From: Alphaproteobacteria bacterium
GTDB lineage: Bacteria; Pseudomonadota; Alphaproteobacteria; JAJFFI01
Length of the DNA stretch: 64,000 nucleotides
Direction of reading: 5' to 3'
NCBI GenBank assembly: GCA_030066595.1
Contig: JASJBI010000057.1
Location: 40,021 to 104,020, forward strand
Shown: positions 10,168-62,003 of the stretch, in pieces
Layout: every line of letters begins with the position of its first letter
Position numbering within the stretch: the stretch's first letter is position 1
The notes under the pieces: generated by a model
The model's database searches: none
Seen by the model: the letters and a program-made list of their open reading frames with translations, nothing else
Told to the model about the DNA's origin: nothing
Translations under genes and position numbers: made by a program

Positions 10168-10193
10168 TCGCGCCGCGCCGGTAGTATCGGCGC

Positions 10194-10727
10194 ATGCCGA
10201 GCGGCGCGCGCATTCGGAGGATCATCCGCCGTCTCGACGGGGTGTTGAGCCGCGTCGAGACGGCGCTGGTCTCCGGGTGCCTGGGATTCGCGGCCTTGAC
10301 CGCGTTCGGCTTGATCGCCGGACGCAACCTGCTCAACCGATCCTACAACGCCCTCGAGGAGATCTCGGTCTACCTCATCATCTGGATGGTGTTCGCGGGC
10401 ATGATGCTGGCCGACCGGGCGCGTCAGCACATCTCGATCGACATCGTCCACTACATCATCCCCGCGCACTGGCAGGGCCCGCTACAGAGAATCGCGGACG
10501 GGTTTCAAGCTCTGGTCTGCCTCGGGCTTGCCTGGTTCAGCCTGGACGCGGTGCGGTTCTCCTGGCGGATCGGCGAGCGCTCGGTCTCGACCCTCGAGCA
10601 GCCCATCTGGGTGCTGATGTCCATCATGCCGCTCGCCTTTCTGGTGGTCGGGTTGCGGTCGCTCGCACGCAGCCTCGGCGAGACCCGCGCGCGAGAGGTT
10701 CGCGACGAGGGAGTGTCGTCTGTTTGA
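10194..10727 (+). CDS. dctQ: TRAP transporter small permease (DctQ family)
   Basis: 177-aa protein with four predicted TM helices, lying between dctP and dctM. Confidence 0.75.
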   Translation: MPSGARIRRIIRRLDGVLSRVETALVSGCLGFAALTAFGLIAGRNLLNRSYNALEEISVYLIIWMVFAGMMLADRARQHISIDIVHYIIPAHWQGPLQRIADGFQALVCLGLAWFSLDAVRFSWRIGERSVSTLEQPIWVLMSIMPLAFLVVGLRSLARSLGETRAREVRDEGVSSV

Positions 10728-13961: not shown

Positions 13962-16900
13962 CCCGCCATCCCTTGACCACGAGCTTGGGTGTCGACGCCG
14001 TGGCGCCCGGCGCAGCGGCACCCGGCACGGGGGCGCCGCCGCCGCGCAACTTCTGGAGACCTTCGACATAGGCACTCATCTGCCCGGCCAGCTGCTCCGT
14101 GCCGGTGCCCATGCGCGCCAGCACGGCTTCGGCCTGCGCCGGGGTCAGGTGCCCCGTCTGCACTTGTTTCAGCACATTGACGCCCTCGGACAGGGAGCGC
14201 GGGATCGTGGCACCCGGGGCGTTGCCCAGCGCCTGCATCGCGCGGGTGCGCGTGACCACCATGTTGCCGTACTGCTTGACGAGCTGGCGCTGCGCCTCCT
14301 CCTCGAGGGCAACGGCGGCTTCGAGCAGCTTTTGCTTTTGACCGGGGGTGCTCGCGGACGCCGCCGCGCGCTTCAACTCGTCGGCTTCCTTCATCCAGTG
14401 ATTGACCTTGAATTCGACCGTCTTGGCGGTGACGGCGGGGTCAATGAAGTCGCGGCCGCGATACGCGTCCTTGGTTGCGGTATCGAGGTCGCCCTGGCCA
14501 GTGCCATAGGCTTCCGGGTGCAGCCGATCGGTGGTCGCCTGGTCGAGCCGCTTGGCGAGCTTGTCGGCGTCCAAGATATCGTTCGGGTCGGCCAGATGCT
14601 CGGACGGGCTCAGATGGGTGTCCTTGAAATCGACGCTCGACTGCTGGGCCGCCATCTCCGCTCGTGGCTGCCGGCTCGGGGTTGGCGCGTCATCGACCCC
14701 CTTGGCTGCCTTGTAGAGCTCTTCGTTGTAGATCCGCGCCGTCGTGGTCGACGGGACGTCCTCCATGATCACGCGTCCGGTGTGGGGATCGACGGTCCGG
14801 ACGCGCATGGTCAGGTCGCGGTCGAAGCTCGCCTTGTTGCCCTTGGGCTCGCGAGCGGCCTGGGCCGCGTCCGCGGGCGATTGCGACGGGCCGGTGCCCG
14901 TCGTATCTGCGGCGCTGCCCCGGCTTGCCTCGGCCCGGCTGCCGGTCACGCCGCCGTCGGGCTCCCAATGTGACGCATGACCCCAGTTCTCGCGCGGCGG
15001 GGCGCGTGGGTCGATCTTCATGCCCGCTTCGCCCGGCATGTTGGTGATGGTCACGACCTGAACGTCTTCCGGTCGCACGCCATACTCCTCGGCGAGCCGG
15101 GCCTTGGTCCCGCGATCGGCCTGCTCGTATATCGCATCCATCTCGCCGTTGAACTCTTTGATGACGGCGTTCTCGCCGTCCGTCTTGGGCAGCCTGTTCA
15201 ACTCGTTCATGGCATGCTTGTCGGCCTGAACGCGGAGCACGTCTTCGCGCATCTGGCGTTCCAGCGCGGCGATCTGGTCGGGTGTCGCGGTGCCGCTCGC
15301 CCTGGCGGCCTCCAGCTCCTCGATCGAACGGCTCAGCGCCTCGACCTTCTCGCGCCCAGCGGCCCGGCCGCTCTCGAAGTGGTCATCCATCTCGCGCGTG
15401 ACCCCTGAGTCCCGCGTTTCGGCGGCAATGCGCTCGGTCTCCGCCGACAGCTGCGCCTCGTTGAACCTGGTCTCGGCGAGATCGGGCGTCAGGCGGTGCG
15501 ATCCACCATCGGGCGTCAGGCGGCCCGATCCCCCGAGGCCGATCCCATCGAGCGCCGACTCGATCGCTTCCGTGCCGGTCTTGTTGAGGGCGTTGACGCG
15601 TTCCGAAACGGCCGTCGTCATATCCGAGATGCCACGCTTGAGATTGGCGTGGGTCTCGGCGTCCAACACCCGTTTGGCGACCGAGTCCAGCGCCGCGCCA
15701 GGCTCTACGCCCGCAACCTCGGCAATATCCAGTCCGGCCGCCGCATCGGCAAACATGCTGACGCCGAGTTCCGTCCAGGAAACCTTCTCGCCGCGGCGCA
15801 TACGGACGAGCGCATCGACCGTGTTGACCGGCAGGTTCTCCCTGACGAACTCGCCCGTGACGGTGTTCAGCACGTCGGTCGATGTGAAGTCCTTGCCCTG
15901 ATCGACGGCCCGGTGCACGCTCGTCTGGACCGCTTGGAGCGTGGTGCCGCTTTGAAACACAGCCTCGCTCCATCCTTTCGTTGCGACGCCTAGAATTGCT
16001 CGCTTCCAGAAGCTGTTGGACGCGTCTTTGAAGCCATGGTGTGCGGCGTCCTGCAGAATGTCGACCGTCGAGGTGCGTCCGAGCTTGTGATCCGGCATCG
16101 CCAGGTCCCGGGACAGGCGGCTTCGCAGCGCTCCTTTGAGCCTGTTCACATAGTCGATATTGACGGAGCCATCGTCATTGTAGATCTGGCCGTGATGGCT
16201 GCGCGCCAGGATCTCGTCGAGCCCCATGTGCTCGGCCGCCTTGCGGATGCGGTCGATATCGTCGATGGCCGCGCGCCGCTCCGCTTCCCCGCGGCGGATC
16301 TCGGCCTCTTTCCGGCGCTCGGCCTCGATCTGTTCCTTCGCGCGTTTCTTGAGCTCTTTGCGCCGGTCGTCGGACTCGCGTTCGAACGCGGTGGCGTCGC
16401 GCCGGCGCTGCTCCACCTCGCGCTCGAGCGCGGCGACCGCCCGTTCGGCTTGCGCACGGGAAAGCCAACGCCAGTTGCCCTTCTTGTCGGGCGCCCAGAC
16501 CTGGCCCTTGGCATTGACCTGGAGGGGCTGGCCGTCCCGCGGATCGATCAGCGGCGGCGGGCGCGCAACCGGCGGTCGGGGCGGGGCGGGTGGCTGGTGC
16601 GTCGGGCGTCCGCCGATGGCGTCGAGAATATCCTGCGTCGTGACATCGACCCCCGCCTGGACGGCGTTGGCGATCGCCGTGGCTACGGCCTGGGCGACGC
16701 TGACGGCGATCCCCGCCGCCACCAGGACCGAGGCGATGACGGCTGCCGCCGCCGCCGCCTCGTCCGAGGACAGCTCGATCTGGCCACCTTGGAACTGTCC
16801 GCCAAGGACGCCGAGGATGTTCCGGATCCAGAGCCAGATGCCTCCGCCTGGCCGCGGGAGATCCTTGCAAAGCTGATCAGAGAACTTCCGGTGATACCCT

Positions 16901-17175
16901 AGGAACTCGTCAAAGCAAAAGCAGTGAACGGCCCACCACCGGCAATCTCGGATGCGGTTCCCCCGGCGCCGTAAGGGCCGCTGGGCAAGAGTCGTGATCT
17001 CGTCAGTGTGCTGCGATCCCGGGAACAACCGCAGGGGTAGATCGACGTCATGGCCGATGGACGCCGGAAGCGGTGCACTTGATTGTTCGGCTTCGGCTCC
17101 CGTTGCGGCCTGCACGCCCTGCCCAAGTCCGCACAGCAGGACGCCGATGGCGAGGTATCGCAGCAGCCTTGTCAT
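13930..17175 (-). CDS. Large (about 1080 aa) uncharacterised envelope protein with signal peptide, Cys-containing N-domain, hydrophobic segment, Pro-rich linker, coiled coil and a long acidic region
   Basis: Start at 17175 (MTRLLRYLAIGVLLCGLGQGVQA, SD GGGGA upstream), not the track's 17598. It then has a Cys-rich segment (RDCRWWAVHCFCFDEF...LCKD), an Ala/Val-rich hydrophobic stretch, PPAPPRPPVARPPPL, a charged coiled coil (ERRKEAEIRRGEAERR) and an acidic remainder. No enzymatic motif recognised. An uninterrupted ORF of this length with protein-like composition is unlikely to be spurious. Confidence 0.6.
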   Translation of the reverse strand: MTRLLRYLAIGVLLCGLGQGVQAATGAEAEQSSAPLPASIGHDVDLPLRLFPGSQHTDEITTLAQRPLRRRGNRIRDCRWWAVHCFCFDEFLGYHRKFSDQLCKDLPRPGGGIWLWIRNILGVLGGQFQGGQIELSSDEAAAAAAVIASVLVAAGIAVSVAQAVATAIANAVQAGVDVTTQDILDAIGGRPTHQPPAPPRPPVARPPPLIDPRDGQPLQVNAKGQVWAPDKKGNWRWLSRAQAERAVAALEREVEQRRRDATAFERESDDRRKELKKRAKEQIEAERRKEAEIRRGEAERRAAIDDIDRIRKAAEHMGLDEILARSHHGQIYNDDGSVNIDYVNRLKGALRSRLSRDLAMPDHKLGRTSTVDILQDAAHHGFKDASNSFWKRAILGVATKGWSEAVFQSGTTLQAVQTSVHRAVDQGKDFTSTDVLNTVTGEFVRENLPVNTVDALVRMRRGEKVSWTELGVSMFADAAAGLDIAEVAGVEPGAALDSVAKRVLDAETHANLKRGISDMTTAVSERVNALNKTGTEAIESALDGIGLGGSGRLTPDGGSHRLTPDLAETRFNEAQLSAETERIAAETRDSGVTREMDDHFESGRAAGREKVEALSRSIEELEAARASGTATPDQIAALERQMREDVLRVQADKHAMNELNRLPKTDGENAVIKEFNGEMDAIYEQADRGTKARLAEEYGVRPEDVQVVTITNMPGEAGMKIDPRAPPRENWGHASHWEPDGGVTGSRAEASRGSAADTTGTGPSQSPADAAQAAREPKGNKASFDRDLTMRVRTVDPHTGRVIMEDVPSTTTARIYNEELYKAAKGVDDAPTPSRQPRAEMAAQQSSVDFKDTHLSPSEHLADPNDILDADKLAKRLDQATTDRLHPEAYGTGQGDLDTATKDAYRGRDFIDPAVTAKTVEFKVNHWMKEADELKRAAASASTPGQKQKLLEAAVALEEEAQRQLVKQYGNMVVTRTRAMQALGNAPGATIPRSLSEGVNVLKQVQTGHLTPAQAEAVLARMGTGTEQLAGQMSAYVEGLQKLRGGGAPVPGAAAPGATASTPKLVVKGWRDEFQTDQQQP

Positions 17176-17210
17176 GGCCGCGCCATTATCCCCATTACAC
17201 GATCGCAGTC

Positions 17211-17831
17211 TCATCTGGCGCTCTCCCGCACCACCCGCATCCGCACGAACAGCAGGAGGGACACGGTCGCCAGCATCGCCGTGGTGAACGCGCCGGTCAT
17301 GACGCCGCCCTGAACGAGGAAGGCTTGCGATCCGACCACCGACAGGAACTGGGTCAATCCATAGGTGACGGCCCACGCGATCAGGTAGCCCGTGGTCCGT
17401 TGAGCCATCAGGGACCCGTCGGCCACGTAGACGTGGTGGGCGCGGCCGCGGTATGCGCCGACGACCAGGCCCAGCAAGATGATCCCGAGCAGCAGGACCG
17501 GCGGCGGCAGATCGCGGTTCAGAACGGCGAGTTGCACCGCATAGCACCCGAAGGCGGCGAGCGGCGGCATGAGGCAGGCGATCCAATTGAGCCGCCATGG
17601 CCTCCGGTAGGTCCAGAGGAGCATGCCGAAGGACCCCGCGAAGAGCCAGATCAGACCTATGACGACTTGCCCGGAGGCGAGCAGGAAGAAGCCCGGGCCT
17701 AGAACCGCGGCGCTCATCGCCAAACTCTTGGCGAGGCTCTTGCCGCCGGCCGCGACCACGCGCCGCACCATTTCGGCCTTCAATTGGGCCGATTGTTTCG
17801 AGGCCTTGGTGCGTCGCGGTCTTGCAGGCAT
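17211..17831 (-). CDS. Integral membrane protein of unknown function
   Basis: 206 aa with a basic N-terminus and four to five hydrophobic helices. It lies immediately upstream of, and on the same strand as, the large protein gene (35-nt gap). Confidence 0.55.
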   Translation of the reverse strand: MPARPRRTKASKQSAQLKAEMVRRVVAAGGKSLAKSLAMSAAVLGPGFFLLASGQVVIGLIWLFAGSFGMLLWTYRRPWRLNWIACLMPPLAAFGCYAVQLAVLNRDLPPPVLLLGIILLGLVVGAYRGRAHHVYVADGSLMAQRTTGYLIAWAVTYGLTQFLSVVGSQAFLVQGGVMTGAFTTAMLATVSLLLFVRMRVVRESAR

Positions 17832-50225: not shown

Positions 50226-50921
50226 GTGGGCGGCAGGATTCTCGTTGTCGAAGATGAACTGGCGATCCGGGAGATGATCGGGCTGGCCCTGTCCAGAGCC
50301 GGGTTCTCATACACCTACGCGGTCAGCACGACGGCGGCACAAGAGGAACTCGAACGAGACCTGCCGGACCTGATCCTGCTGGACTGGATGCTGCCGGGCA
50401 GCTCCGGCATCGAATTCATTCGCTGGCTCAAGCGCACCGAGTTCACCCACGAGGTGCCGGTCGTGATGCTCACCGCCCGTGGCGAAGATGAGGACAAGGT
50501 TCAAGCCCTGAATCTCGGTGCGGACGACTATGTCACGAAGCCGTTCTCGCCGCGGGAGTTGGTGGCACGCATCGAGGCCGTCTTGCGCCGGACCAAACCG
50601 CATGCCACCGACAGCCCTGTCGAGCTGTGCGGCTTGAGGATCGATCCCCGCAGTCGCCGGGTCCACGCGGACGGGCACGCGGTCGACCTCGGACCGATCG
50701 AGTTCCGCATGCTGCATGTGCTGATCTCTCAGCCGGACCGCGTCTACAGCCGGGCACAGCTCTTGGACCTGGTTTGGGGCATCAACATCCACGTCGGCGA
50801 ACGCACCGTCGACATGCACATCAGCAATCTGCGCAAGGCGCTGGCACAGCACAGCAGCGGCCATCTGATCGAAACGGTGCGAGGCACCGGATACCGTTTC
50901 GCGATGCAGGCTCAGCAATGA
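50226..50921 (+). CDS. phoB: Phosphate regulon response regulator PhoB (OmpR family)
   Basis: Receiver domain (ILVVEDELAIREMI...LILLDWMLPGSSGIEF...) and winged-helix output domain (TVDMHISNLRKAL...GTGYRF). GTG start. Confidence 0.9.
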   Translation: MGGRILVVEDELAIREMIGLALSRAGFSYTYAVSTTAAQEELERDLPDLILLDWMLPGSSGIEFIRWLKRTEFTHEVPVVMLTARGEDEDKVQALNLGADDYVTKPFSPRELVARIEAVLRRTKPHATDSPVELCGLRIDPRSRRVHADGHAVDLGPIEFRMLHVLISQPDRVYSRAQLLDLVWGINIHVGERTVDMHISNLRKALAQHSSGHLIETVRGTGYRFAMQAQQ

Positions 50922-52258
50922 TTGGGGCTTGGCGCAAGGAGCTGCTGCTGGTTGCCGGGGTCGCCGCGCTGCTCTGGATCATCGGGCGTGCCATTGGCCA
51001 GCCCGGTCCGCTGCTGGCGGCCGGCCTGATCGGCTATCTCGGCTGGCATATCTTCAACCTGGTCCTCCTGCAGCTCTGGCTGCGACGCCGCCGCAGCGCC
51101 CGGCTGCCTCTCTCCTGGGGCGTTTGGGAAGCCGCGTTCGATGGTCTCCAGCAGGTCCAGAGCCAGCATCGACGGCGCCGGGGGCGGCTCACCCGCGCGC
51201 TCGCGGAATTCCGGGCGGCTGCGGCGGGGCTGCCCGACGCGCTGGTCGTATTGGACGAAACGAACTGTATCCGGTGGACCAATCCCGCGGCGACGCGGCT
51301 CTTGGGCGCGGACCGGCGGGTCCACCTGGGCAGCGACATCCGGGATCTGCTCCGGCATCCGATCCTCGAGGATGACCTGGCCGCGCCAGGGGCGAGTCGT
51401 CCCCTGGAGATCCCCTCGCCGGCGAACGGCGCATGGATGCTGAGCGTTCAGGTGACCCGGGTCCTGGGCGACCGGCGAGACGGTCAGCGGGTTCTGGTGG
51501 CGCGTGACGTCACCTCGATCTACAAATTCGACCGGGCGCGCCGCGATTTCGTGGCCAATGTTTCGCATGAACTGCGTACGCCGATCACCGTCTTCCGCGG
51601 TTTCCTCGAGACCTTGCGCGACATGTCCGACGGCAACATTGAGTGGGCCCGTCCGGTTGCGCTCATGGACCGCGAGGCCGCGAAGATGCAGAACTTGGTC
51701 GGCGATCTCTTGACTCTGTCACGCCTGGAGATGGCGGACCGGCCGAAGTCCGACCAACCGGTTCCGGTCGCCAACATGCTGGCCGAGATCTGCGCGGACG
51801 CCAGATCGCTGAGCGGCGCCGACAGCCACCGGCTCGTACTGGATGCCGATCCTGGACTATGGCTGCGGGGCGATCGGCAGGAGCTCCAGAGCGCGTTTTC
51901 CAATCTGGTGTTCAACGCCGTGAAGCATACGCCGCCCGGGACCACGATCGATGTCCGCTGGGACGCCTACGCGGACGGCGCAGCCCTGGCCGTGCGGGAC
52001 ACGGGGCACGGTATCGCCGCCCATCATCTGCCGCGTTTGACCGAACGCTTCTATCAGGTGGATACCGGCCGGGCGCGCCGCAACGGGGGCACCGGGCTGG
52101 GGCTGGCGATCGTCAAGCAGGTGCTCGAGCACTATCGGGGCGAGTTGCGGATCGCCAGCCGCGAGGGCGAGGGCAGCGCCTTCACCTGCACATTTCCGAA
52201 TGCCGTGGTCGAGGTCGACCAAGCCGCGAGCCGCTCTCTCGAGCGGGTTTGCGCCTGA
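50918..52258 (+). CDS. phoR: Phosphate regulon sensor histidine kinase PhoR
   Basis: TM N-terminus, PAS-like region, H-box (FVANVSHELRTPITV) and HATPase N, G1 and G2 boxes. Its ATG overlaps the phoB stop (ATGA). Confidence 0.85.
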   Translation: MIGAWRKELLLVAGVAALLWIIGRAIGQPGPLLAAGLIGYLGWHIFNLVLLQLWLRRRRSARLPLSWGVWEAAFDGLQQVQSQHRRRRGRLTRALAEFRAAAAGLPDALVVLDETNCIRWTNPAATRLLGADRRVHLGSDIRDLLRHPILEDDLAAPGASRPLEIPSPANGAWMLSVQVTRVLGDRRDGQRVLVARDVTSIYKFDRARRDFVANVSHELRTPITVFRGFLETLRDMSDGNIEWARPVALMDREAAKMQNLVGDLLTLSRLEMADRPKSDQPVPVANMLAEICADARSLSGADSHRLVLDADPGLWLRGDRQELQSAFSNLVFNAVKHTPPGTTIDVRWDAYADGAALAVRDTGHGIAAHHLPRLTERFYQVDTGRARRNGGTGLGLAIVKQVLEHYRGELRIASREGEGSAFTCTFPNAVVEVDQAASRSLERVCA

Positions 52259-52345
52259 ATCCGCCCTTTCCGCCACGTCATTGCAGAAGTCTCAAGTGGC
52301 GATGACAAAACCATAACAATACGACGCCAAACTCCTCTTCAGGAA

Positions 52346-52412: not shown

Positions 52413-53297
52413 ATGCAAAAAGCGAAGCCGGACTGGCGAGTTGCCGTGGTGTTGGCCGCAATCGCGGTTCTCTTTTATCAGCAGGCGAATGCCCGTGATC
52501 TGATCCAGAACAAGGGCTCGGACACGCTGGTGAACGTCGCCCAGGCCTGGGCCGAGAACTATCAGAAGGTGAACAGCGACGTTGCGGTCGCCGTCACCGG
52601 CGGTGGCTCCGGCACCGGAATTGCGGCGATGATCAACGGGACCGTCGACATCGCCAATGCCAGCCGGGCGATGAAGAAGAAGGAACTCGATCTGGCGAAG
52701 TCGAAGGGCCAGAATCCGATCGAGCATATCGTCGGCTATGACGCCCTGGCGGTCTTCCTGCACGAGAGCAATCCGGCCAAATCCATATCGATCGCCCAGC
52801 TCGCGGAGATCTACGGCGAGGACGGCAAGACGGAGAAGTGGACCGACATCGGCCTCGAGGTGCCGAAGTGCAAGGGCCAGGAGATGGTGCTGGTCAGCCG
52901 GCAGAACAATTCCGGGACTTATGCCTATTTCCGTAAGGCCGTGCTCGGCAAGCGGCGCGACTACAAGATGGGCACCCGTGATATGCACGGCTCCAAGGAC
53001 GTCGTCGACCTGGTCGAGAAGACTCCCTGCGCCATCGGCTACAGCGGCCTCGCTTACGCGACCGACCACATCAAGATGGCCTGTGTCTCCAAGGAAGAAG
53101 GCAAGCCCTGCGTGATGCCCTCCGTCGCGACAGCGAGCGACGGGACCTATCCGATCGCGCGCCCGCTGTTCATGTACACGAACGGCGAGCCGAAGGGGCA
53201 GATCAAGGCCTATCTGGACTGGATCCTCAGCGACGAGGGCCAGTGCATCATCTTCAAGAAGGGATACGCCCCGGTTCGTGCCGTCAAGTGCGGCTGA
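52413..53297 (+). CDS. pstS: Phosphate ABC transporter substrate-binding protein (PstS family)
   Basis: Signal-anchor N-terminus and a PBP-like body (DTLVNVAQAWAENYQK...VTGGGSGTGIAAMINGTVDIANASR). Confidence 0.8.
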   Translation: MQKAKPDWRVAVVLAAIAVLFYQQANARDLIQNKGSDTLVNVAQAWAENYQKVNSDVAVAVTGGGSGTGIAAMINGTVDIANASRAMKKKELDLAKSKGQNPIEHIVGYDALAVFLHESNPAKSISIAQLAEIYGEDGKTEKWTDIGLEVPKCKGQEMVLVSRQNNSGTYAYFRKAVLGKRRDYKMGTRDMHGSKDVVDLVEKTPCAIGYSGLAYATDHIKMACVSKEEGKPCVMPSVATASDGTYPIARPLFMYTNGEPKGQIKAYLDWILSDEGQCIIFKKGYAPVRAVKCG

Positions 53298-53464: not shown

Positions 53465-54550
53465 ATGACGCTTTACGAGGAAAGACTGTCGAAGGATCTG
53501 GGCCGCCTCCGCGACGAGGTCGCGACGATTGGGGCGGCGGTGCAGACGGCGCATGAGAATGCGGCCCAAGCCGCGTTAACCGGCAACCGGACGCTCGCCA
53601 ACCTCACCATCATCGGCGATCATCCCATCAATCGGCGGGTCCGCGAGATCAACCGGCTGGCGCACGCCTTCCTTGCGGTTCATCAACCCAGCGCCGGCCA
53701 CCTTCGCCTGATCTCCTCGATCCTGCGCCTGGTCAACGAGCTCGAGCGTATCGGCGATTACGCCGTGACCATCGCCCGCGAAGCGCTGCAACTGCCGCAT
53801 ACGCCCACGGGTCTGCTCAAGCAGGAGTTCGAGCAGATGGCCGATCAGGCGCAGACCTGCCTGCGCCAGTCGATGACCGCCTTCAACGAGAGGAATGCGG
53901 ACCTCGCCCGAGAGACGAAGGCGCTGGCGTCACAAGCCAAGGGCCGCGGTGACACGGTGTTCGGCGAGCTGGTTGAGGAAGCCGAAAAGGAGCAGATCCG
54001 CTACCTCTTCGACGTCCTGATCATGGTCGGACGGCTCAAGCGCGTGGCCGACCGGGCCAAGAACATCTGTGAAGAGACGCTGTTCACGGTCACCGGCGAG
54101 ACCAAGGCCCCGAAGGTCTACAAGATCTTGTTCCTCGACCAGGAGAACAACTGCCAGAGCCAGCTCGCCGAGGCGTTCGCCCGCAAGACCTTCCCGAACA
54201 GCGGGCAGTACAACAGCGCCGGCCGGGTCAACGGCGTGGACCTCGCGCCCGGGCTGTTGAGCTTCATGGAGATGCACGGGCTGGCGGTCCAGCCGATGAC
54301 GCCCAAGACCATAGAGACAGATCTCGATCGGATTGCCGCCCACGATTTGGTGATCAGCCTGGACGGGCCGATGTCCGCCTATGTCGACAAGCAGCCGTTC
54401 CGGACCGTCTATCTGGAATGGGACGTCGGGGCGCGGCCGGAAGGGGCCGACGAGGCGGAGGTCGAAACGCGGTACCGCGAGATCTATCGCGAGATCTCGG
54501 CTCAGGTCCGTGCCCTGATGGAAACGCTCAGAGGCGAGGAGGCGGACTGA
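53465..54550 (+). CDS. phoU: PhoU-domain protein fused to a catalytically degenerate low-molecular-weight phosphatase (LMWPc/ArsC-like) domain
   Basis: N-terminal 215 aa with two PhoU repeats (LVNELERIGDYAVTIA; IMVGRLKRVADRAKNICEE). C-terminal 140 aa with an LMW-PTP fold pattern, but the P-loop reads ILFLDQENNCQSQLAEAF, where the canonical sequence is V-C-X4-C-R-S. The catalytic Cys is replaced by Asp and the Arg by Gln. Confidence 0.8.
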   Translation: MTLYEERLSKDLGRLRDEVATIGAAVQTAHENAAQAALTGNRTLANLTIIGDHPINRRVREINRLAHAFLAVHQPSAGHLRLISSILRLVNELERIGDYAVTIAREALQLPHTPTGLLKQEFEQMADQAQTCLRQSMTAFNERNADLARETKALASQAKGRGDTVFGELVEEAEKEQIRYLFDVLIMVGRLKRVADRAKNICEETLFTVTGETKAPKVYKILFLDQENNCQSQLAEAFARKTFPNSGQYNSAGRVNGVDLAPGLLSFMEMHGLAVQPMTPKTIETDLDRIAAHDLVISLDGPMSAYVDKQPFRTVYLEWDVGARPEGADEAEVETRYREIYREISAQVRALMETLRGEEAD

Positions 54551-54551
54551 C

Positions 54552-55499
54552 GTGGCCGACACGACCAGAACTGTCGCGGAGCCGATCCCCACCGCTGCGC
54601 CGGCCGCCTTCGATCGCCGGGACGCCGACTGGTATCTCGACAAGGCCGTACAGGTCCTCGTCTTCATCGGCGGCATCTCCGCGATCATCTTCATCATCGG
54701 GATCTTCGTCTTCGTCACCCGCGAAGGTTTCGGGTTCCTGCTGGAGGGGTTCAGTTTCGGCGAGTTCTTCGGCTCGCCGCGATGGAAGCCGACATCCGAA
54801 TACAACACCACCTATGGCATACTGGCCCTGGTTGCGGGCACCGCCAGCGTCACCGGCCTGGCGATGATCGTGGCGATCCCGTTCTCGCTCGGGGCCGCCA
54901 TCTATATCGCCGAGTTCGCGACCGGCAAGACGCGCGAGATTCTGAAGGTCCTGGTCGAGCTGCTGGCGGCGATCCCCTCGGTCGTGTGGGGCTTCATCGG
55001 TCTCACGATCATGAACCCGCTCATCATCGAGTTGTTCGACGTGCCGGTCGGGCTCAACGTGCTCAACGCCGGCGTGATCCTTGGTCTGATGGCGGCGCCG
55101 ATCATGACCTCGATCGCGGAGGACGCGCTCAAGGCGGTGCCGGACCGTTATCGCGAGGCGGCCGAGGCCATGGGGGCGACACGCTGGCAGGTGATCTACC
55201 GCGTCGTCTTGCCGGCCGCGAAGAACGGTTTGCTCGGGGCCGTGCTGCTGGGCGTCGGGCGCGGGTTCGGCGAGACCATGGCGGTGCTGATGGCCAGTGG
55301 CCACGCGGTCAATCTGCCCGACAGTATCTTCGATTCCGTGCGCGCTCTGACCGCCACCATCGCGGCCGAGCTGGGCGAGACCGCCGTCGGGTCCGAGCAC
55401 TATCAGGCGCTCTTCACCATCGGCATCTTCCTGTTCATCATCACTTTCCTCATCAACCTGACCGCCGACCTGATCGTGCGCGGCATCCGGAAGGGCTAG
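54552..55499 (+). CDS. pstC: Phosphate ABC transporter permease PstC
   Basis: Six TM helices with an EAA loop (EAAEAMGATRWQVIYRVVLP). GTG start overlapping the upstream stop. Confidence 0.85.
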   Translation: MADTTRTVAEPIPTAAPAAFDRRDADWYLDKAVQVLVFIGGISAIIFIIGIFVFVTREGFGFLLEGFSFGEFFGSPRWKPTSEYNTTYGILALVAGTASVTGLAMIVAIPFSLGAAIYIAEFATGKTREILKVLVELLAAIPSVVWGFIGLTIMNPLIIELFDVPVGLNVLNAGVILGLMAAPIMTSIAEDALKAVPDRYREAAEAMGATRWQVIYRVVLPAAKNGLLGAVLLGVGRGFGETMAVLMASGHAVNLPDSIFDSVRALTATIAAELGETAVGSEHYQALFTIGIFLFIITFLINLTADLIVRGIRKG

Positions 55500-55514: not shown

Positions 55515-56384
55515 ATGTTCGAAGCGACACCTCTCAATATCCAGGATCAGCGTCGGCAGGCTCTCGTCCGAATGCTGTTCCTGATCATGACGGCGCTGTT
55601 GATCCTGCCGGTGCTGATCATCCTGGCGACCCTGATCTACAAGGGCGGGCCGGCGATCTCGTGGGAGTTTCTGTTCGATGATCCCCGGGAAGGCATGACG
55701 GCGGGCGGCATCTTCCCGGCCCTCGTGGGCACGATCTGGCTGGTCGCCGTGGCCCTCCTGGTGTCCGTGCCCCTGGGCGTCGCTGCGGCCCTGTATCTCA
55801 GCGAGTTCGCCCCGGACAACTGGTTCACCCGGTTCATCAACCTGTGCATCATCAACCTCGCCGGCGTGCCTTCGATCGTGCACGCGCTGTTCGGGGTCGG
55901 CGCCTTCGTGCTGTTCTTCGGCTTCGGCACCAGCATCCTGGCCGCCAGCCTGACGCTGGCGATCATGACCCTGCCGATCGTCATCGTGGCCACGCGGGAA
56001 TCGTTGCAGGCTGTGCCGCTGGCCTTCCGCGAGGCGTGCTGGAACATGGGGGCTACACGCTGGCAGACCATCCACCGGGTCGTCCTGCCGAACGCCGTCA
56101 GCGGCATCCTCACCGGCGTCATCCTCGAGGTGTCGCGAACCACCGGCGAGACCGCACCGATCATGTTCACGGGCGCGGCGTTCTTCCTGCCGTTCCTGCC
56201 GACGAGCGTGTTCGACCAGACGATGGCGATGTCGCTGCACCTGTTCGTGATCTCCACGCAGGTGCCGGGGGTGCCGGACCATTTGCCCTACGGCGTCGCG
56301 CTGGTGTTGATCGCCATGGTCTTGACCATGAACGCCGCATCAATCGGCCTGCGCATGTATCTGCGCGGCAAGAAGAAGTGGTAA
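55515..56384 (+). CDS. pstA: Phosphate ABC transporter permease PstA
   Basis: TM helices with an EAA loop (REACWNMGATRWQTIHRVVLP). Confidence 0.85.
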   Translation: MFEATPLNIQDQRRQALVRMLFLIMTALLILPVLIILATLIYKGGPAISWEFLFDDPREGMTAGGIFPALVGTIWLVAVALLVSVPLGVAAALYLSEFAPDNWFTRFINLCIINLAGVPSIVHALFGVGAFVLFFGFGTSILAASLTLAIMTLPIVIVATRESLQAVPLAFREACWNMGATRWQTIHRVVLPNAVSGILTGVILEVSRTTGETAPIMFTGAAFFLPFLPTSVFDQTMAMSLHLFVISTQVPGVPDHLPYGVALVLIAMVLTMNAASIGLRMYLRGKKKW

Positions 56385-56389
56385 GGGCG

Positions 56390-57205
56390 ATGAACGACCA
56401 GGGGGTTGCCACGATTCTCGAGACGTCCCAGCCCGCGACCGCGGCGAAGGGACCGGTGAAGCTTGCCGTCCACAACCTGTCCATCAGCTATGGCGGCACG
56501 CCGGCGCTGGTCGGCGTCGACCTGGAGATCCACGAGAACGAGATCTTCGGCATCATCGGTCCCGCCAACAGCGGCAAGACGTCGTTCCTCAAGGCGCTGA
56601 ACCGGATGGACATGTTCAACCCGGCCATGCAGGTCGCGGGCGACATCCTGTTCAACGGCACCAACATCCGCCAGTGGCGCAATGTCTACGCACTGCGTCG
56701 GCGCATCGGCGTGGTCTTCCCCCTGCCGGTGGGCCTGCCGATGACCGTCTACGACAACGTCGCCCTGGCGCCACGGCTTTCGGGCGTCAACAGGAAGGCG
56801 GACTTGGACGATATCGTGGAGCGCTGTCTCCGGCGCGCGGCGCTGTGGGACGAGGTCAAGGACCGCCTCGACTCGCTGGGCAGCCTGCTCTCCGGCGGCC
56901 AGCAGCAGCGCCTGACCATCGCCCGGGCGCTCTCGCAAGACCCGGAGCTCTTGATGCTGGACGAGTTCTCCATCGCCGTGGACCCGGTGACCACGATGCG
57001 CATCGAGGACGTGCTCAAGGAGCTGCGGACGGAAATGACCATCATCCTCGTCACCAACCTGACCCAGCAGGCACGCCGCCTGGCCGATCGCACGGCCTTC
57101 TTCCTGACCGGAAGCTGCGTCGAGATCGGCGACACCGAGGCCTTGTTCACCGGCAACGTCCAGGACACGCGCACCGCGGACTACATCGCCGGCCGGTTCG
57201 GATAG
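56390..57205 (+). CDS. pstB: Phosphate ABC transporter ATP-binding protein, degenerate paralog (PstB1)
   Basis: PstB-like throughout, but the Q-loop is VVFPLP (Q replaced by P), the D-loop region is LMLDEFSIAVDP and the H-loop is ILVTNLTQQARR (His replaced by Asn). The ABC signature LSGGQQQRL is intact. ATG at 56390; the track's 55844 start is an extension. Confidence 0.8.
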   Translation: MNDQGVATILETSQPATAAKGPVKLAVHNLSISYGGTPALVGVDLEIHENEIFGIIGPANSGKTSFLKALNRMDMFNPAMQVAGDILFNGTNIRQWRNVYALRRRIGVVFPLPVGLPMTVYDNVALAPRLSGVNRKADLDDIVERCLRRAALWDEVKDRLDSLGSLLSGGQQQRLTIARALSQDPELLMLDEFSIAVDPVTTMRIEDVLKELRTEMTIILVTNLTQQARRLADRTAFFLTGSCVEIGDTEALFTGNVQDTRTADYIAGRFG

Positions 57206-57226
57206 GCGACGGGGGAGGGAAGCCGG

Positions 57227-58042
57227 ATGCATGAGCCGATCATGAACGAGACCCGTGCGGCCAATGGCGGCAATGGACACGACGCCATCTTCACCCGAGA
57301 CCTCAATCTCTGGTACGGCGACTTCCAGGCGCTGTTCGACGTGAACCTGGCCATCAAGGACGGCATGATCACCTCGCTGATCGGGCCGTCCGGCTGCGGC
57401 AAGACCACCTTCCTGCGCAGCATCAACCGCATCAACGAGCGGCTGGGCTACGTCCGTACCGAGGGCTCGATCCTGGTGTTCGACACGGACATCTACGGCG
57501 GCGAGGTGGAGCTCGCCCAGGTGCGCAAGCAGATCGGGATGGTGTTCCAACGACCGAACCCGCTGCCGATCTCGATCAGCGATAATGTGCTGTTCGGCTT
57601 CCAGCTCCATGGCGAAGGGCGCACGCGCATGCACAAGAGCGAGAAGGAAGAGATCGTCGAAGCGGCGCTCAAGCAGGTCCTGCTCTGGGATACGGTCAAG
57701 GACCGGCTGGACAGCAAGGCGACCGAGCTGTCGCTGGAGGAACAGCAGAAGCTCTGCATCGCGCGCCTCCTGCCGGTGAAGCCCACCATCCTCTTGATGG
57801 ACGAGCCCTGTTCCGCGCTCGACCCCAAGGGCACGGAGGCGGTCGAGGAGCTCATCTGGGAGCTGCGCGGCGACTACACCATCGTCATCGTCACGCACAA
57901 CATGGCGCAGGCGCGGCGCGCCAGCGAGGAATGCATCTTCATGCTGATGGGCAAGGTGGTGGAGCACACGGCGACCGAGGACATGTTCGTCACGCCGGCC
58001 AAGAAGGAAACCGCTGACTACATCGAAGGCCGCTACGGCTGA
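57227..58042 (+). CDS. pstB: Phosphate ABC transporter ATP-binding protein (PstB2) with canonical catalytic motifs but a degenerate signature
   Basis: Walker A GPSGCGKTT, Q-loop VFQRP, Walker B LLMDEPCSALDP and H-loop VTHNMAQARR are canonical. The signature reads LSLEEQQKL in place of LSGGQQQRL. Confidence 0.85.
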   Translation: MHEPIMNETRAANGGNGHDAIFTRDLNLWYGDFQALFDVNLAIKDGMITSLIGPSGCGKTTFLRSINRINERLGYVRTEGSILVFDTDIYGGEVELAQVRKQIGMVFQRPNPLPISISDNVLFGFQLHGEGRTRMHKSEKEEIVEAALKQVLLWDTVKDRLDSKATELSLEEQQKLCIARLLPVKPTILLMDEPCSALDPKGTEAVEELIWELRGDYTIVIVTHNMAQARRASEECIFMLMGKVVEHTATEDMFVTPAKKETADYIEGRYG

Positions 58043-58191: not shown

Positions 58192-58395
58192 TTTGCTGCA
58201 AGTGCGAAATCGGTAATGTTCCGTACTTGACGGGACTGGCCCAAAGGGGGGCGTCAAGCTCGCCGGCAGCGGTCGCTGCGGTCGGGTGAGACACGAAACG
58301 CGGTTAGGCCAGTCCCGTTCGCAAGCTCTCCGGATCCCGGCGCAGCCATGTCCGTTCGTGCGCCGCGGTCCAATGCGAAGACAGGGGTGTCGCCT

Positions 58396-59076
58396 ATGGC
58401 CAGAACAAGTCCTTTTGCCAGCCTGTTCGCTCAGTCGCCGTTCAAGCCGATGCAACAACACATCGGCGTTGTCGCACGCTGCGCGTCGAACGTGCCCGAT
58501 CTTTTCGAGGCGTTGTGCGACGGCGATCAGGCCAAGGTATCCGAGGTCAAGGACAAGATCTTTGCCCTCGAGAATGAAGCCGACGGGATCAAGAACGAGC
58601 TACGCGCCCATTTGCCCAAGAGCCTGTTCATGCCGGTCGACCGCCGCGATCTGCTGGAGCTCCTGGATGTGCAGGACTCGATCGCGGACACGGCCCAGGA
58701 CATCGCGGGGCTGCTCATCGAGCGGCCCATGGAGGTGCCGGACGGGTTCAAGGAGCCGCTGCTCGGCCTGACCCGCCGCTGCGTCGACGCATGCAATCAG
58801 GCCGAGAAGATCATCGGCGAGCTGGACGAGTTGGTGTCGACCGGATTTCGGGGTCGAGAGTCCGAGCTTGTGTCGGAGATGGTCGACGAGCTCAACAAGA
58901 TCGAGGCCGACACCGACGAGATGGGCATGGATCTGACCCGGCGCCTGTTTGCCAAGGAAGACCAGCTCAAGCCGGTGTCGGTGATGTTCTGGTATCAGCT
59001 CATTCAGTGGATCGGCGATCTCGCCGACTACGCGGAAAAAGTGGGGAATCGACTGCGCTTGCTGCTTGCGCGCTGA
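58396..59076 (+). CDS. DUF47-family (PhoU-like, Pit accessory) protein
   Basis: Typical DUF47 helical protein (SLFAQSPFKPMQQHIGVVARCASNVPDLFEAL...ENEADGIKNEL...) immediately upstream of pit. Confidence 0.8.
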   Translation: MARTSPFASLFAQSPFKPMQQHIGVVARCASNVPDLFEALCDGDQAKVSEVKDKIFALENEADGIKNELRAHLPKSLFMPVDRRDLLELLDVQDSIADTAQDIAGLLIERPMEVPDGFKEPLLGLTRRCVDACNQAEKIIGELDELVSTGFRGRESELVSEMVDELNKIEADTDEMGMDLTRRLFAKEDQLKPVSVMFWYQLIQWIGDLADYAEKVGNRLRLLLAR

Positions 59077-59112
59077 TCAGCACGCAGTCGTCAAAGGGGG
59101 GGTACCCGATCC

Positions 59113-60378
59113 ATGGAACTCATTTCACTCTACGGCACGGTCTTCATTGTGATGGCCATCGTGTTCGGCTTCTACATGACCTGGGGCATCGGCGCCAACG
59201 ATGTCGCCAACGTCATGGGCACCTCTGTCGGCTCGGGCGCGATCACCGTCACCACGGCGATCATCATTGCCGGCATCTTCGAGTTTGCCGGCGCGGCGCT
59301 GGCCGGCGGGCACGTGACCAAGACGATTCGCAAGGGAATCATCGACCCGACCCCGATCGTCAACAACCCCGAGATCCTGGTCTTCGGCATGTTGGCGGCC
59401 TTGCTGGCGGCCGCGGTCTGGCTCACCGTTGCCTCGGCGCGCGGCTGGCCGGTCTCGACCACTCATTCGATCATCGGCGCCGTGGTTGGGTTTGCCATCG
59501 CCGGGATCGGCATGGAAGCCGTTCAGTGGGGCAAGATCGGACAGATCGTGGCCAGCTGGGTCGTCTCGCCCGTGCTGGGCGGCACGATCGCGTTCATCCT
59601 CATGATCAGCATACGGCGTCTGATCCTGAACACTGAGACCCCTTTCGTGAACGCCAAACGTTGGGGGCCGGTCTACGTGTTCCTGGTCGGCTTCATCATG
59701 TCTCTGGTGACCATGTACAAGGGCCTCAAGCACCTGAAGCTGGACCTCAGCGTGCCCATGAGCTTCCTCGTCGCAGCGATCTTCGGACTCATCGTCGCAG
59801 CTATCGGTTGGTATCTGATCAGCCGGGTGAAAGTGGATGAGCGCGCCGACAAGGATCACCATTTCGCCAGCGTCGAGAAGGTCTTCGTGCCGATGATGCT
59901 GTTCACCGCCTGCGGCATGGCTTTCGCGCACGGCTCGAACGATGTCGCCAACGGCGTGGGTCCGCTGGCGGCCGTCTACGGCTTGGTCCAGTCAGGCGGC
60001 GAGGTGGCCCAAAGGTCCGAGTTACCGCTGTGGATCCTGGTGCTCGGCGGGGTCGGGATCATCGTCGGTCTGGCGACCTTCGGCTACCGGGTCATGCGGA
60101 CCATCGGCACGAAGATCACCGAGCTCACGCCGACGCGCGGCTTCAGCGCCACCATGGCGGCCGCGGCGACGGTTGTGCTGGCGTCCCGGACCGGCATGCC
60201 GGTCTCGACCACCCATATCGCGGTCGGCGCGGTGATGGGCGTGGGCCTGGCACGAGGCATCGGCGCCATCGACCTGCGGGTCATCGGCGGGATCTTCGTC
60301 TCCTGGATCGTAACCCTGCCGATCGGCGGCGTGCTGGCCGCCCTGTTCTTCTTCACCCTGAAGGGCATGTTCACATAG
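59113..60378 (+). CDS. pit: Inorganic phosphate transporter PitA (PHO4 family)
   Basis: GANDVANVMGTSVGSGAIT...GSNDVANGVGPLAAV are the duplicated PHO4 signature repeats. Confidence 0.9.
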   Translation: MELISLYGTVFIVMAIVFGFYMTWGIGANDVANVMGTSVGSGAITVTTAIIIAGIFEFAGAALAGGHVTKTIRKGIIDPTPIVNNPEILVFGMLAALLAAAVWLTVASARGWPVSTTHSIIGAVVGFAIAGIGMEAVQWGKIGQIVASWVVSPVLGGTIAFILMISIRRLILNTETPFVNAKRWGPVYVFLVGFIMSLVTMYKGLKHLKLDLSVPMSFLVAAIFGLIVAAIGWYLISRVKVDERADKDHHFASVEKVFVPMMLFTACGMAFAHGSNDVANGVGPLAAVYGLVQSGGEVAQRSELPLWILVLGGVGIIVGLATFGYRVMRTIGTKITELTPTRGFSATMAAAATVVLASRTGMPVSTTHIAVGAVMGVGLARGIGAIDLRVIGGIFVSWIVTLPIGGVLAALFFFTLKGMFT

Positions 60379-60497
60379 CGGTTCAACAACCGAGGCGGAA
60401 CCGGCGCCAGTCCATACCCCACGCGATCGCCCAACGGACGTGTCCTGCGGGCGGTCGGTCGGGTGTCTGGGCTGGCGCGATCGTGAGGGAAGGTGGT

Positions 60498-62003
60498 CTA
60501 GACGTGGGCGGCGTCTAGAGGCTCCGCGCTACCGGATGAGGCAGCCTGCGAGGCCGCAGCCGGGCGCGCCGGGAGGTCGGAAACGTCACCGGAGGCAGCT
60601 CTCTCGTTGGCGAGCGCCAGCAGCGGTTCCGCCAAGTACTCAAGCGGCGTCATCTCTCCGTTCAGGCGCACGAAGATCGCCAGATTGTGTAGGTTCGAGC
60701 AGGTCAGCACATGATGCTGCCGGATCCCGCCAACGTCCGTCCACACGGTTCCCTCGGGAGTGATGTGCGAATGGCCGACGATGAACGGCGTGTGTTTGGC
60801 GACGCCGAGGCTTGACCGGAAGCGCTTGACGCTGCCCTTGGTGTAGCCGGCCGGCCGGTTCGGGCGCTTCAATCGGTTCCAGGTGATCTCGTGGGCTACA
60901 CCCGGGTATTTCTGGATGTCCACCAGCATCTGCATCGGCACTTCGGACCGGGTCGGCGCCGCATGGCAGGCGATGAAACGCTTGGTCTTGGCGACATAGG
61001 GCAGGTGTTCGAAGAACCGGGTCAGCTCGTCGACGTATTCATGTCCGCGCAGCTCGAGGGCGCGCTGGCGCAAGAGCACGCCTTGGCACACCCCACCCTT
61101 CGCGACCGCTTCGTCGAAGCTGTCGTGGTTGCCGCGCAGATAGAAGACACTGTTCGGAAACTCGATCTTCAACTTGAAGATCAGGTCCAGCATGAGCAGC
61201 GAGCTGTCCATCTCAGCAAGCTCGCTGTCCTCCTCGGAGTGGACCGCGTCTCCCAGGAACAGCAGATAGGCGGTGCCGCGCTCGAGCGATTCGAGAAGGC
61301 AGTTCTCGCTCAGGACCTTCAGGAGATTGTCAACGCGCGCATGCAAGTCGCCGATGATCACCGGCGTGGGCCGGTTTGGCAGATCCAGCAGCCCGCCCGG
61401 CCGCCCGTCCGCATTCGGCCGTCGATAGCCTTCCCCGGACAGGAGGGCGTTGACCTGCGCGACGGATGCAAGGGCTTCGCCTGGAGAGAGCAACTCCAGG
61501 GGGCCGCCGAAAAGCTCGCAGACGCGGTCCAGGTTCTCGAGCCGCTGTGTCAGGAACTTTGACGCTTCCCGCTGATCGTCGAGCAGCGAGATCTCGGTTG
61601 ACGCCTCGGGATCCAACGGGGCGACAATCAGCTCACCCCGGCGGTTCTCGATGTGCACGTGGCGCCGGCGGACCGTCCTTGAGAACCCGAAGATCTGATC
61701 GCAGTGCTCGTTCTCGCGGCCGAGCAAGAGGGTCTCGCCGGCCGCGATCCGTGCGAAACCCGCGATCTCGGAGAAATAGTGCTCGGGATCGAGCAGGATC
61801 CAATCTCGGGGTCCGCCCCGGCGCTGCGCACCCAGGCCGGTGTCCGGATACAGGCGGAGCTCCCTGTCACCAACGCGAAGCTGCGCCGGTCCGCCATCCC
61901 AGGGTAGCCGCACCCGGCCGCGCAGAGGGCGCAACTCGGGCGTCAGCGGCGACGCATCCGCCGCCGACTCACGCTTGAACAGCCCTTGCAGTCGACCCAA
62001 CAA
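60498..62003 (-). CDS. FHA-like domain fused to a PPP-family (calcineurin-like) Ser/Thr phosphoesterase
   Basis: N-terminal FHA-like pattern (LLLGRENEHCDQIFGFSRTVRRRHVHIENRRGELIVAPLD...STEI). Metallophosphatase motifs follow: VIIGDLHAR (GDxHG), LLFLGDAVHSEED (GDxxDRG-like) and LRGNHD (GNHE). Confidence 0.6.
   Translation of the reverse strand: MLGRLQGLFKRESAADASPLTPELRPLRGRVRLPWDGGPAQLRVGDRELRLYPDTGLGAQRRGGPRDWILLDPEHYFSEIAGFARIAAGETLLLGRENEHCDQIFGFSRTVRRRHVHIENRRGELIVAPLDPEASTEISLLDDQREASKFLTQRLENLDRVCELFGGPLELLSPGEALASVAQVNALLSGEGYRRPNADGRPGGLLDLPNRPTPVIIGDLHARVDNLLKVLSENCLLESLERGTAYLLFLGDAVHSEEDSELAEMDSSLLMLDLIFKLKIEFPNSVFYLRGNHDSFDEAVAKGGVCQGVLLRQRALELRGHEYVDELTRFFEHLPYVAKTKRFIACHAAPTRSEVPMQMLVDIQKYPGVAHEITWNRLKRPNRPAGYTKGSVKRFRSSLGVAKHTPFIVGHSHITPEGTVWTDVGGIRQHHVLTCSNLHNLAIFVRLNGEMTPLEYLAEPLLALANERAASGDVSDLPARPAAASQAASSGSAEPLDAAHV

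Follow-up and report, generated by a model that had tools for sequence, protein, structure and literature searches.

The adjacent genes pstB1 and pstB2, which encode the ATPases of a phosphate (Pst) importer, lie in a 64,000-nucleotide stretch of the alphaproteobacterial contig JASJBI010000057.1 (positions 40,021 to 104,020; hereafter the window, in whose coordinates positions are given). The list of its open reading frames (ORFs), together with domain and family profile searches, places a phosphate-regulon locus at 50.2-60.4 kb. In this locus pstB1 and pstB2, both with intact ORFs, are the last two genes of a phoBR-pstS-phoU-pstC-pstA operon:

50226-50921, plus strand: phoB, response regulator (ORF; a Response_reg + Trans_reg_C gene lies at the same place in three alphaproteobacterial relatives, L081, L164 and L165)
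50918-52258, plus strand: phoR, sensor kinase (ORF, with an ATG start that overlaps the phoB stop, derived by residue counting in the ORF; the orthologues in the same three relatives have PhoR/PAS/HisKA/HATPase_c domains)
52413-53297, plus strand: pstS, phosphate-binding protein (TIGR02136, 236.4 bits against a cutoff of 206.6; PF12849)
53465-54550, plus strand: phoU, two PhoU repeats fused to a C-terminal LMW-PTP/ArsC-like domain (TIGR02135, 140.9 bits against a cutoff of 130.25; PF01451, 29.8 bits)
54552-55499, plus strand: pstC, permease (TIGR02138, 275.3 bits against a cutoff of 196.45)
55515-56384, plus strand: pstA, permease (TIGR00974, 261 bits against a cutoff of 193.45)
56378 (GTG) or 56390 (ATG) to 57205, plus strand: pstB1, ATPase (TIGR00972, 282.2 bits, below the cutoff of 343.2)
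57227-58042, plus strand: pstB2, ATPase (TIGR00972, 321.4 bits, below the cutoff of 343.2; preceded by a GGAGG ribosome-binding site)

PstS, PstC, PstA and the PhoU part all score above their NCBIfam cutoffs. For PstB1 and PstB2, TIGR00972 (the PstB equivalog) is by far the best family, though neither protein reaches the equivalog cutoff. The pair belongs to a pstS-pstC-pstA operon, with PstS, PstC and PstA encoded immediately upstream, and this synteny is shared by the 19 species loci described below. The window PstB1, which is 38% identical to PstB2, is the same protein as GenBank MDJ0951146.1 from an alphaproteobacterial metagenome-assembled genome (MAG); close relatives are named Kiloniellales.

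To locate the motifs, both proteins were aligned with HMMER to E. coli PstB (PDB 9k3x), whose residue numbering is used throughout. The alignments to 9k3x_C (E = 3e-61 for PstB1 and E = 4e-73 for PstB2) cover residues 7/11-257, the whole nucleotide-binding domain, and both include, over their full length, the C-terminal DYIxGR[FY]G of characterised PstBs. They are gap-free at every motif, which excludes misalignment and frameshift, and the motif positions of the initial annotation of this locus are confirmed:

56558-56584, plus strand: PstB1 Walker A, GPANSGKTS, with S45A, S50T and T51S
56711-56740, plus strand: PstB1 Q-loop, VVFPLPVGLP, with Q98P
56888-56914, plus strand: PstB1 signature, LSGGQQQRL, intact
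56948-56983, plus strand: PstB1 Walker B and D-loop, LLMLDEFSIAVD (LMLDEFSIAVD), with P180F and S182I in the D-loop flank
57044-57073, plus strand: PstB1 H-loop, ILVTNLTQQA, with H210N
57383-57409, plus strand: PstB2 Walker A, GPSGCGKTT, canonical
57539-57568, plus strand: PstB2 Q-loop, MVFQRPNPLP, canonical
57728-57754, plus strand: PstB2 signature, LSLEEQQKL, with G156L, G157E and R161K
57788-57823, plus strand: PstB2 Walker B and D-loop, ILLMDEPCSALD (LLMDEPCSALD), Walker B canonical
57884-57913, plus strand: PstB2 H-loop, VIVTHNMAQA, canonical (VTHN)

The initial annotation had described PstB1 as keeping its signature while carrying a Q-to-P change in the Q-loop, an altered D-loop and a His-to-Asn change in the H-loop, and PstB2 as combining canonical loops with a degraded signature. 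Both descriptions hold, and the Walker A of PstB1 also departs from the otherwise invariant GPSGCGKST. The full canonical set (GPSGCGKST, FQ, LSGGQQQRL, DEP, THN) is found in neither protein: PstB1 is without Q98 and H210, PstB2 without G156 and G157.

These motif states are not peculiar to the window. A scan of one genome per GTDB species, set up with exact peptide seeds and therefore giving a lower bound, yielded 19 loci. With the window added, they provide 20 PstB1 sequences and, as the contig of L010 ends inside the second gene, 19 PstB2 sequences and 19 pairs in all. The PstB1 relatives in these loci have identities of 57-79% and are clearly set off from the next matches, which are ordinary PstBs at 51% or less. 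In every locus that is long enough, the PstB1-type gene is directly followed by a PstB2-type gene (L-x-L-E-x-QQKL, canonical catalytic loops). All 20 PstB1-type sequences have Pro98, Asn210, DEFSIA[VI]D and an intact LSGGQQQRL. At positions 98/156/157/210, where 68 canonical PstBs taken from the same scan are invariant for Q/G/G/H, the residues are P/G/G/N in 20/20 PstB1-type and Q/L/E/H in 19/19 PstB2-type proteins.

At positions invariant in the canonical set, the PstB1 clade has fixed S45A, S50T, T51S, Q98P, N101V, P102G, F103L, C163T, A169S, P180F, S182I, L195V, H210N and N211L. These changes are confined to Walker A, the Q-loop, the D-loop flank and the H-loop, plus three positions outside motifs (C163T, A169S, L195V), and none lies in the signature. 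The PstB2 clade has fixed F103L, G156L, G157E, R161K, A169P and T222C, that is, changes in the signature and three outside motifs (F103L, A169P, T222C), with none in Walker A, the Q-loop, Walker B or the H-loop. The PstB2 signature drifts at S155 and Q158, two residues that contact ATP, yet between them Leu156 and Glu157 never change (19/19 sequences).

Among the nearest database relatives, 120 of 120 for PstB1 have Pro98, Asn210, LSGGQQQRL and DEFSIAVD, and 120 of 120 for PstB2 have LSLEEQQKL with canonical loops; the same deviant motifs occur in hundreds of independent assemblies. The hosts of the species loci belong to at least eight phyla and comprise Chromatiaceae and other Gammaproteobacteria, Accumulibacter, Planctomycetota, Polyangiaceae and other "delta" lineages, Holophagales, Thermoanaerobaculia and other Acidobacteriota, Poribacteria, Verrucomicrobiota (Limisphaera) and Binatia. 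The cassette pstS-pstC-pstA-pstB1-pstB2 is syntenic across the species loci and, because identity across phyla is high (75-77% between the window alphaproteobacterium and Planctomycetota or Accumulibacter), it may well move horizontally. The tandem pair is also present in the three alphaproteobacterial relatives named above, where the cassette lies directly downstream of phoB-phoR and apparently serves as the Pho-regulated Pst system; in two of these relatives the contig is circular (5.0 and 6.0 Mb). The cluster members that we looked up in search of a cultured host were all metagenome-assembled, and Limisphaera sp. 4302-co (L016) is the sole locus record without a MAG flag in its title.

PstB1-type and PstB2-type sequences are each monophyletic in 200/200 neighbour-joining bootstraps, whether or not the five motif regions are masked. 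Their mean identity to each other is 39%, and to canonical PstB it is 45% for PstB1 and 49% for PstB2. Over the 19 paired loci, the pairwise distances of the two proteins are correlated (r = 0.895, Mantel p = 1e-4); the pair is passed on and diverges as one unit. The ratio of nonsynonymous to synonymous substitution rates (dN/dS), computed against L081 (~86% amino-acid identity for PstB1 and ~81% for PstB2), is 0.155 for pstB1 and 0.179 for pstB2, compared to 0.09-0.23 for the other operon genes. Positions conserved at 95% or more number 108 in PstB1 and 94 in PstB2, against 77 in the more diverse canonical set. Both genes are under purifying selection and neither is a decaying duplicate. The survey of orthologues that the initial annotation had called for thus finds the complementary pair maintained.

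The nucleotide pocket of PstB1 is maintained as well, since A-loop Tyr20, Walker A Lys49, Walker B Asp178, the catalytic Glu179 and D-loop Asp185 are kept in 20/20 sequences. That it is not simply eroded is illustrated by the contrast with a Clostridium MAG (L055; 973-1770 and 4407-5168), in which one PstB has a Walker A Lys-to-Ile and a catalytic Glu-to-Arg change; the second PstB there has LSPGQ.

In ATP-binding cassette (ABC) proteins, a composite site consists of Walker A and B and the A-, Q- and H-loops of one domain and the signature of the other (PMC7756269; for PstB PMC12976172). By this rule, pairing PstB2 with itself would put LSLEE in both sites, and pairing PstB1 with itself would leave both sites lacking the Q-loop Gln and H-loop His; the heterodimer is the sole case with one consensus site, formed by the catalytic loops of PstB2 and the LSGGQ of PstB1. 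An obligate heterodimer is the best reading because neither homodimer would hold a consensus site, and this is our strongest argument. Support also comes from the strict complementarity, from the existence of two invariant and always adjacent clades, from their co-divergence and from purifying selection. We consider it probable that an obligate PstB1/PstB2 heterodimer, which has one consensus and one non-canonical ATP site, powers the PstS-PstC-PstA importer. From the observed motifs, their conservation and complementarity, and the co-inheritance and selection of the genes, we infer the formation of the heterodimer, a loss of hydrolysis at the second site and the ATP stoichiometry.

The proposed complex would contain a head-to-tail PstB1/PstB2 dimer with two composite sites in place of the usual PstB homodimer. 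In the consensus site, Walker A, Q-loop, Walker B and H-loop of PstB2 would lie opposite the LSGGQ of PstB1, and this site would bind and hydrolyse ATP and drive the cycle. In the non-canonical site, the pocket of PstB1, with Lys, Asp, Glu and the stacking Tyr kept but a Pro in the Q-loop and an Asn in the H-loop, would lie opposite the LSLEE of PstB2; nucleotide would be bound on PstB1 with little or no hydrolysis. Canonical closure on ATP is probably absent from this site, because the signature Glu of PstB2 sits where the gamma-phosphate normally meets the glycine backbone. This Glu157 aligns with CFTR Gly551, where Asp and Glu (G551D, G551E) repel the gamma-phosphate and so block dimerisation by ATP at that site, whereas Ser and Lys (G551S, G551K) do not (PMC4178940). 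The likeness consists in an acidic residue at the second glycine of LSGGQ; however, the CFTR mutants are pathogenic or engineered and affect the catalytic site, whereas G157E in PstB2 is the fixed wild type, is assigned to the non-catalytic site and goes along with compensating changes in PstB1. The importer would spend about 1 ATP per cycle, running on the PstB2 site, and the built-in asymmetry of its ATPase dimer would match that of the PstC/PstA permeases, which are asymmetric themselves. HisP2MQJ is a precedent for a type I importer in which one intact site suffices (PMC3971661).

Several points weigh against this reading. The initial annotation had predicted one canonical and one dead ATP site; the complementary composite sites stand, but the second site is at most predicted to be dead, as PstB1 keeps Lys49, Asp178, Tyr20 and, above all, the catalytic Glu179. 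Loss of this Walker B Glu, called the hallmark of degenerate exporter sites in one study (PMC7544095), is thus seen in none of the 20 PstB1 sequences. In the active site of MRP1, an Asn in the H-loop gave wild-type-like transport and Q-loop mutants had mild effects (PMC7756269). By analogy, and with the Glu kept, residual hydrolysis at the second site may occur. Nor is the consensus site fully canonical, because the D-loop flank of PstB1 is changed: the initial annotation had called this site fully canonical, but D-loops lie at the centre of the dimer interface and are not owned by one site (PMC7756269). Finally, a canonical pstB elsewhere in the host genomes, if present, could pair with either subunit.

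Heterodimeric ABC exporters that combine a consensus with a degenerate site include TM287/288, TmrAB, BmrCD, LmrCD, TAP1/2, CFTR and MRP1. As in these, the nucleotide-binding domains of the Pst pair are non-identical (PMC7756269; PMC3971661), and catalytic elements in cis (H-loop) of one domain combine with the signature in trans of the other; the deviations of PstB1 and PstB2 come together in one such composite site. The exporters differ in having transmembrane and nucleotide-binding domains that are fused and a type IV fold, whereas the Pst pair belongs to a binding-protein-dependent type I importer of four separate subunits. Further, they have lost the catalytic Glu of Walker B, whereas PstB1 has kept it and lost the Q-loop Gln instead, and the degenerate site of CFTR, TAP and LmrCD occludes ATP, whereas the acidic trans signature of PstB2 is expected to repel it. 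The comparison with these three systems made in the initial annotation therefore applies to the gathering of deviations in one composite site but not to the chemistry, where G157E is equivalent to the ATP-repelling G551E of CFTR. By analogy, the Pst pair would work functionally like the consensus/degenerate exporters, without being a member of those families.

Among importers, sequence analysis indicates one degenerate ATP site in RbsA and NupO, which are CUT2-type sugar and nucleoside importers (PMC11466899). Unlike in the PstB pair, their domains are fused in one polypeptide and their degeneracy includes loss of the Walker A Lys and Walker B Asp/Glu, and they are of a different transporter class and substrate than Pst. 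E. coli PstSCAB contains a PstB homodimer with two identical consensus sites (PDB 9k3x, 9k3y, 9k3s; PMC12976172). It has the same components and core gene order, and both window PstBs align with its PstB end to end. The difference is that E. coli uses one PstB in two copies, whereas two paralogues are present here, each deviant at canonical-invariant positions; also, the window PhoU carries the LMW-PTP-like fusion and is placed between pstS and pstC.

The LMW-PTP-like domain of this fusion is likely a pseudo-phosphatase, judging by its CX5R(S/T) loop, which is without the nucleophilic Cys in 14 of 14 aligned sequences (D-QENNC-Q-S in the window, and 13 orthologues). The three alphaproteobacterial relatives have the fusion, and so do 13 of the 19 species loci, in which its gene is located between pstS and pstC or immediately before pstS. 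The E. coli system signals phosphate sufficiency or starvation when PstB carries changes predicted to hold its dimer open or closed (PMC5775613). A permanently asymmetric dimer together with a co-conserved PhoU fusion would suggest a remodelled signalling complex.

An exhaustive representative search and one metagenome scan yielded milder forms of the pair:

L084, L085: first gene with GPA..GK, Q98A/S, H210N and intact LSGGQ; adjacent partner with LTEEQ or LSGEQ
P0129, P0159, P0161, P0183: unpaired proteins of the L084/L085 first-gene type
L086-L094: first gene with GPAGGGKST and Q98A, the His mostly kept as V-P-H-S (Ser in L088); partner with LSLGQ, LSIGE or LSLGE, adjoining the first gene or located across the operon

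Across the pair classes, H210N in PstB1 is found only together with G157E in PstB2 (the 19 class I pairs, L084 and L085); where PstB1 has kept His210 (L087, L089, L092, L094) or has Ser (L088), PstB2 keeps Gly157. We would expect such covariation if residues 210 and 157 faced each other, but it represents just two or three independent evolutionary events. The Q-loop-deviant PstBs all group together, except for a Nostoc paralogue, as do most of the signature-deviant ones (Jaccard 0.97 and 0.93), with bootstrap support of 14/100 and 4/100, respectively; a single origin of all Q-loop-degenerate and of all signature-degenerate PstBs is possible, but without bootstrap support we do not claim it. 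The Nostoc paralogue (L045, 7395-8219) is a copy with a Q-to-P change beside a canonical one. In addition, a third PstB in a poribacterial locus (L015, 8480-9277) has LSIGQQQLL and an H-to-N change and adjoins a pstA-like gene and phoU, and P0153 and P0200 are further proteins listed among the milder or different PstB variants in other lineages.

The covariation, the fixed Leu-Glu and the PhoU fusion also bear on an elaboration of the heterodimer reading, which extends rather than excludes it and which we offer only tentatively. The non-canonical site may have been repurposed as a regulatory or latch site: Glu157 of PstB2, placed at the position of the gamma-phosphate and mimicking it against Asn210 and Lys49 of PstB1, might close the site without ATP or with ADP, and energy or phosphate status might be reported to PhoR via the PhoU-pseudo-phosphatase protein. 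The pair would then represent a widespread family of type I importers in which a protein latch replaces one ATP site, 1 ATP is used per cycle, and the non-catalytic site and the PhoU-pseudo-phosphatase form a sensing or regulatory element of the Pho signalling complex; the milder pairs (Q98A with LSLGQ; Q98A/S and H210N with LSGEQ or LTEEQ) could be its intermediate stages. That Leu156 and Glu157 are fixed while their neighbours drift points to a positive role of this dipeptide and not to simple decay, and the coupling of H210N to G157E, the co-conservation of the PhoU fusion and the signalling by the open and closed states of E. coli PstB are in line with a latch. Against it, the covariation derives from few events, the PhoU fusion was not found in the available sequence of L011-L013, L015 and L017 despite their PstB pair (L002 is too short), and the proposal as a whole is purely inferential.

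Less likely, and in our view improbable, is that both ATP sites are catalytically active, with substitutions that tune kinetics and 2 ATP per cycle retained. The invariant catalytic Glu, Walker A Lys and Walker B Asp of PstB1 and the activity of the MRP1 H-loop and Q-loop mutants would fit this explanation. Yet three contacts to the gamma-phosphate (Q-loop Gln, H-loop His and the trans signature Gly-Gly) are changed together in one and the same composite site, the 68 canonical PstBs show no variation (100% invariant) at any of the four positions, and a Glu at the corresponding CFTR glycine (G551E) keeps ATP from driving productive dimerisation.

Firmicutes often carry pstB genes in tandem (L028, L036, L051, L053, L080); as in the PstBA/PstBB pairs of Enterococcus faecalis and Bacillus subtilis, two adjacent pstB genes end the pst operon there. 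The E. faecalis PstBs have non-equivalent roles, and an excess of PstB2 can replace PstB1 (PMC12096839). Alternative homodimers, or a main and an accessory ATPase, as proposed for this organism, are very unlikely for the window pair, which differs from the Firmicute tandem because there both copies are fully canonical (also PMC12096839) and PstB2 can replace PstB1. The window genes are not two adjacent canonical pstB genes but a complementary-degenerate pair, and the Firmicute tandem PstBs fall outside both the PstB1 and the PstB2 clade. As set out above, either homodimer would consist of two deviant sites, and the strict, conserved complementarity would stay unexplained. That one gene is a decaying duplicate, or the deviations an artefact of sequencing or alignment, might be read from the TIGR00972 scores of 282 and 321 bits against the cutoff of 343, but is extremely improbable given the intact ORFs, the 108 and 94 highly conserved positions and the recurrence of identical deviant motifs in independent assemblies, and dN/dS (0.16 and 0.18) together with the gap-free alignments rules out pseudogene and misalignment.

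At the pstA/pstB1 junction, the alternative starts of pstB1 give proteins of 275 aa (GTG 56378) or 271 aa (ATG 56390, as in GenBank). Translation probably begins at the GTG (GTGGTAA, overlapping the pstA stop), since relatives have ATGGTAG at the same junction; the overlap in the window and its relatives suggests translational coupling with pstA. Between the stop of pstB1 and the start of pstB2 there is a gap of 21 nt, and the two genes share a reading frame (57203-57229); by frame arithmetic, read-through of the stop codon or a single mutation at the end of pstB1 would give a fused tandem ATPase. A scan of the operon for promoters and terminators found nothing above chance. A direct repeat resembling a Pho box, TTGTTATGGTTTTGTCAT (52302-52319, minus strand), precedes pstS by about 95 nt and has 3 mismatches to CTGTCAT-N4-CTGTCAT; the count of such 3-mismatch matches across the window is not above chance.

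Downstream of the operon, the phosphate-regulon locus also holds a transporter gene pair:

58348-60378, plus strand: DUF47 (PhoU_div) and PiT low-affinity phosphate transporter pair (PF01865, 193 bits; PF01384, 404 bits)

This pair is a neighbour outside the Pst complex and is likewise adjacent in L001, L004 and L081. Together with a 500-aa calcineurin-like phosphoesterase on the minus strand, which is adjacent in L081 too, it flanks the operon (58348-62003). Elsewhere in the window, the AT-skew is strongly negative at 10001-12000 (-0.22) and 14001-16000 (-0.25) compared to the rest, and these excursions coincide with long ORFs at 10277-12025 (plus strand) and 13930-17598 (minus strand).

The complementary PstB pair is a real and conserved variant of the Pst importer that has apparently not been described for phosphate importers, as the initial annotation had supposed. 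A full-text literature search, with most subscription journals outside its reach, found no work that links PstB with a degenerate, asymmetric or heterodimeric site, and a 2025 paper on E. faecalis notes that tandem pstB paralogues had not been compared in any study before it (PMC12096839). Combinations of consensus and degenerate sites are frequent in ABC exporters, while the number of ATPs used per cycle by importers is still debated (PMC3971661). With this pair, a naturally occurring and strongly conserved type I importer would apparently run on one consensus site, its half-sites lying on separate small soluble subunits. It would thus offer a clean system for studying ATP stoichiometry, the purpose of a non-catalytic site and the way in which PhoU and PhoR read the conformation of the Pst ATPase dimer. 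Its carriers are environmentally important, including the polyphosphate accumulator Accumulibacter, sulfur-oxidising Gammaproteobacteria, Acidobacteriota and Planctomycetota, and since both proteins are annotated as ordinary "PstB", gene surveys of phosphorus cycling lump this variant with canonical systems.

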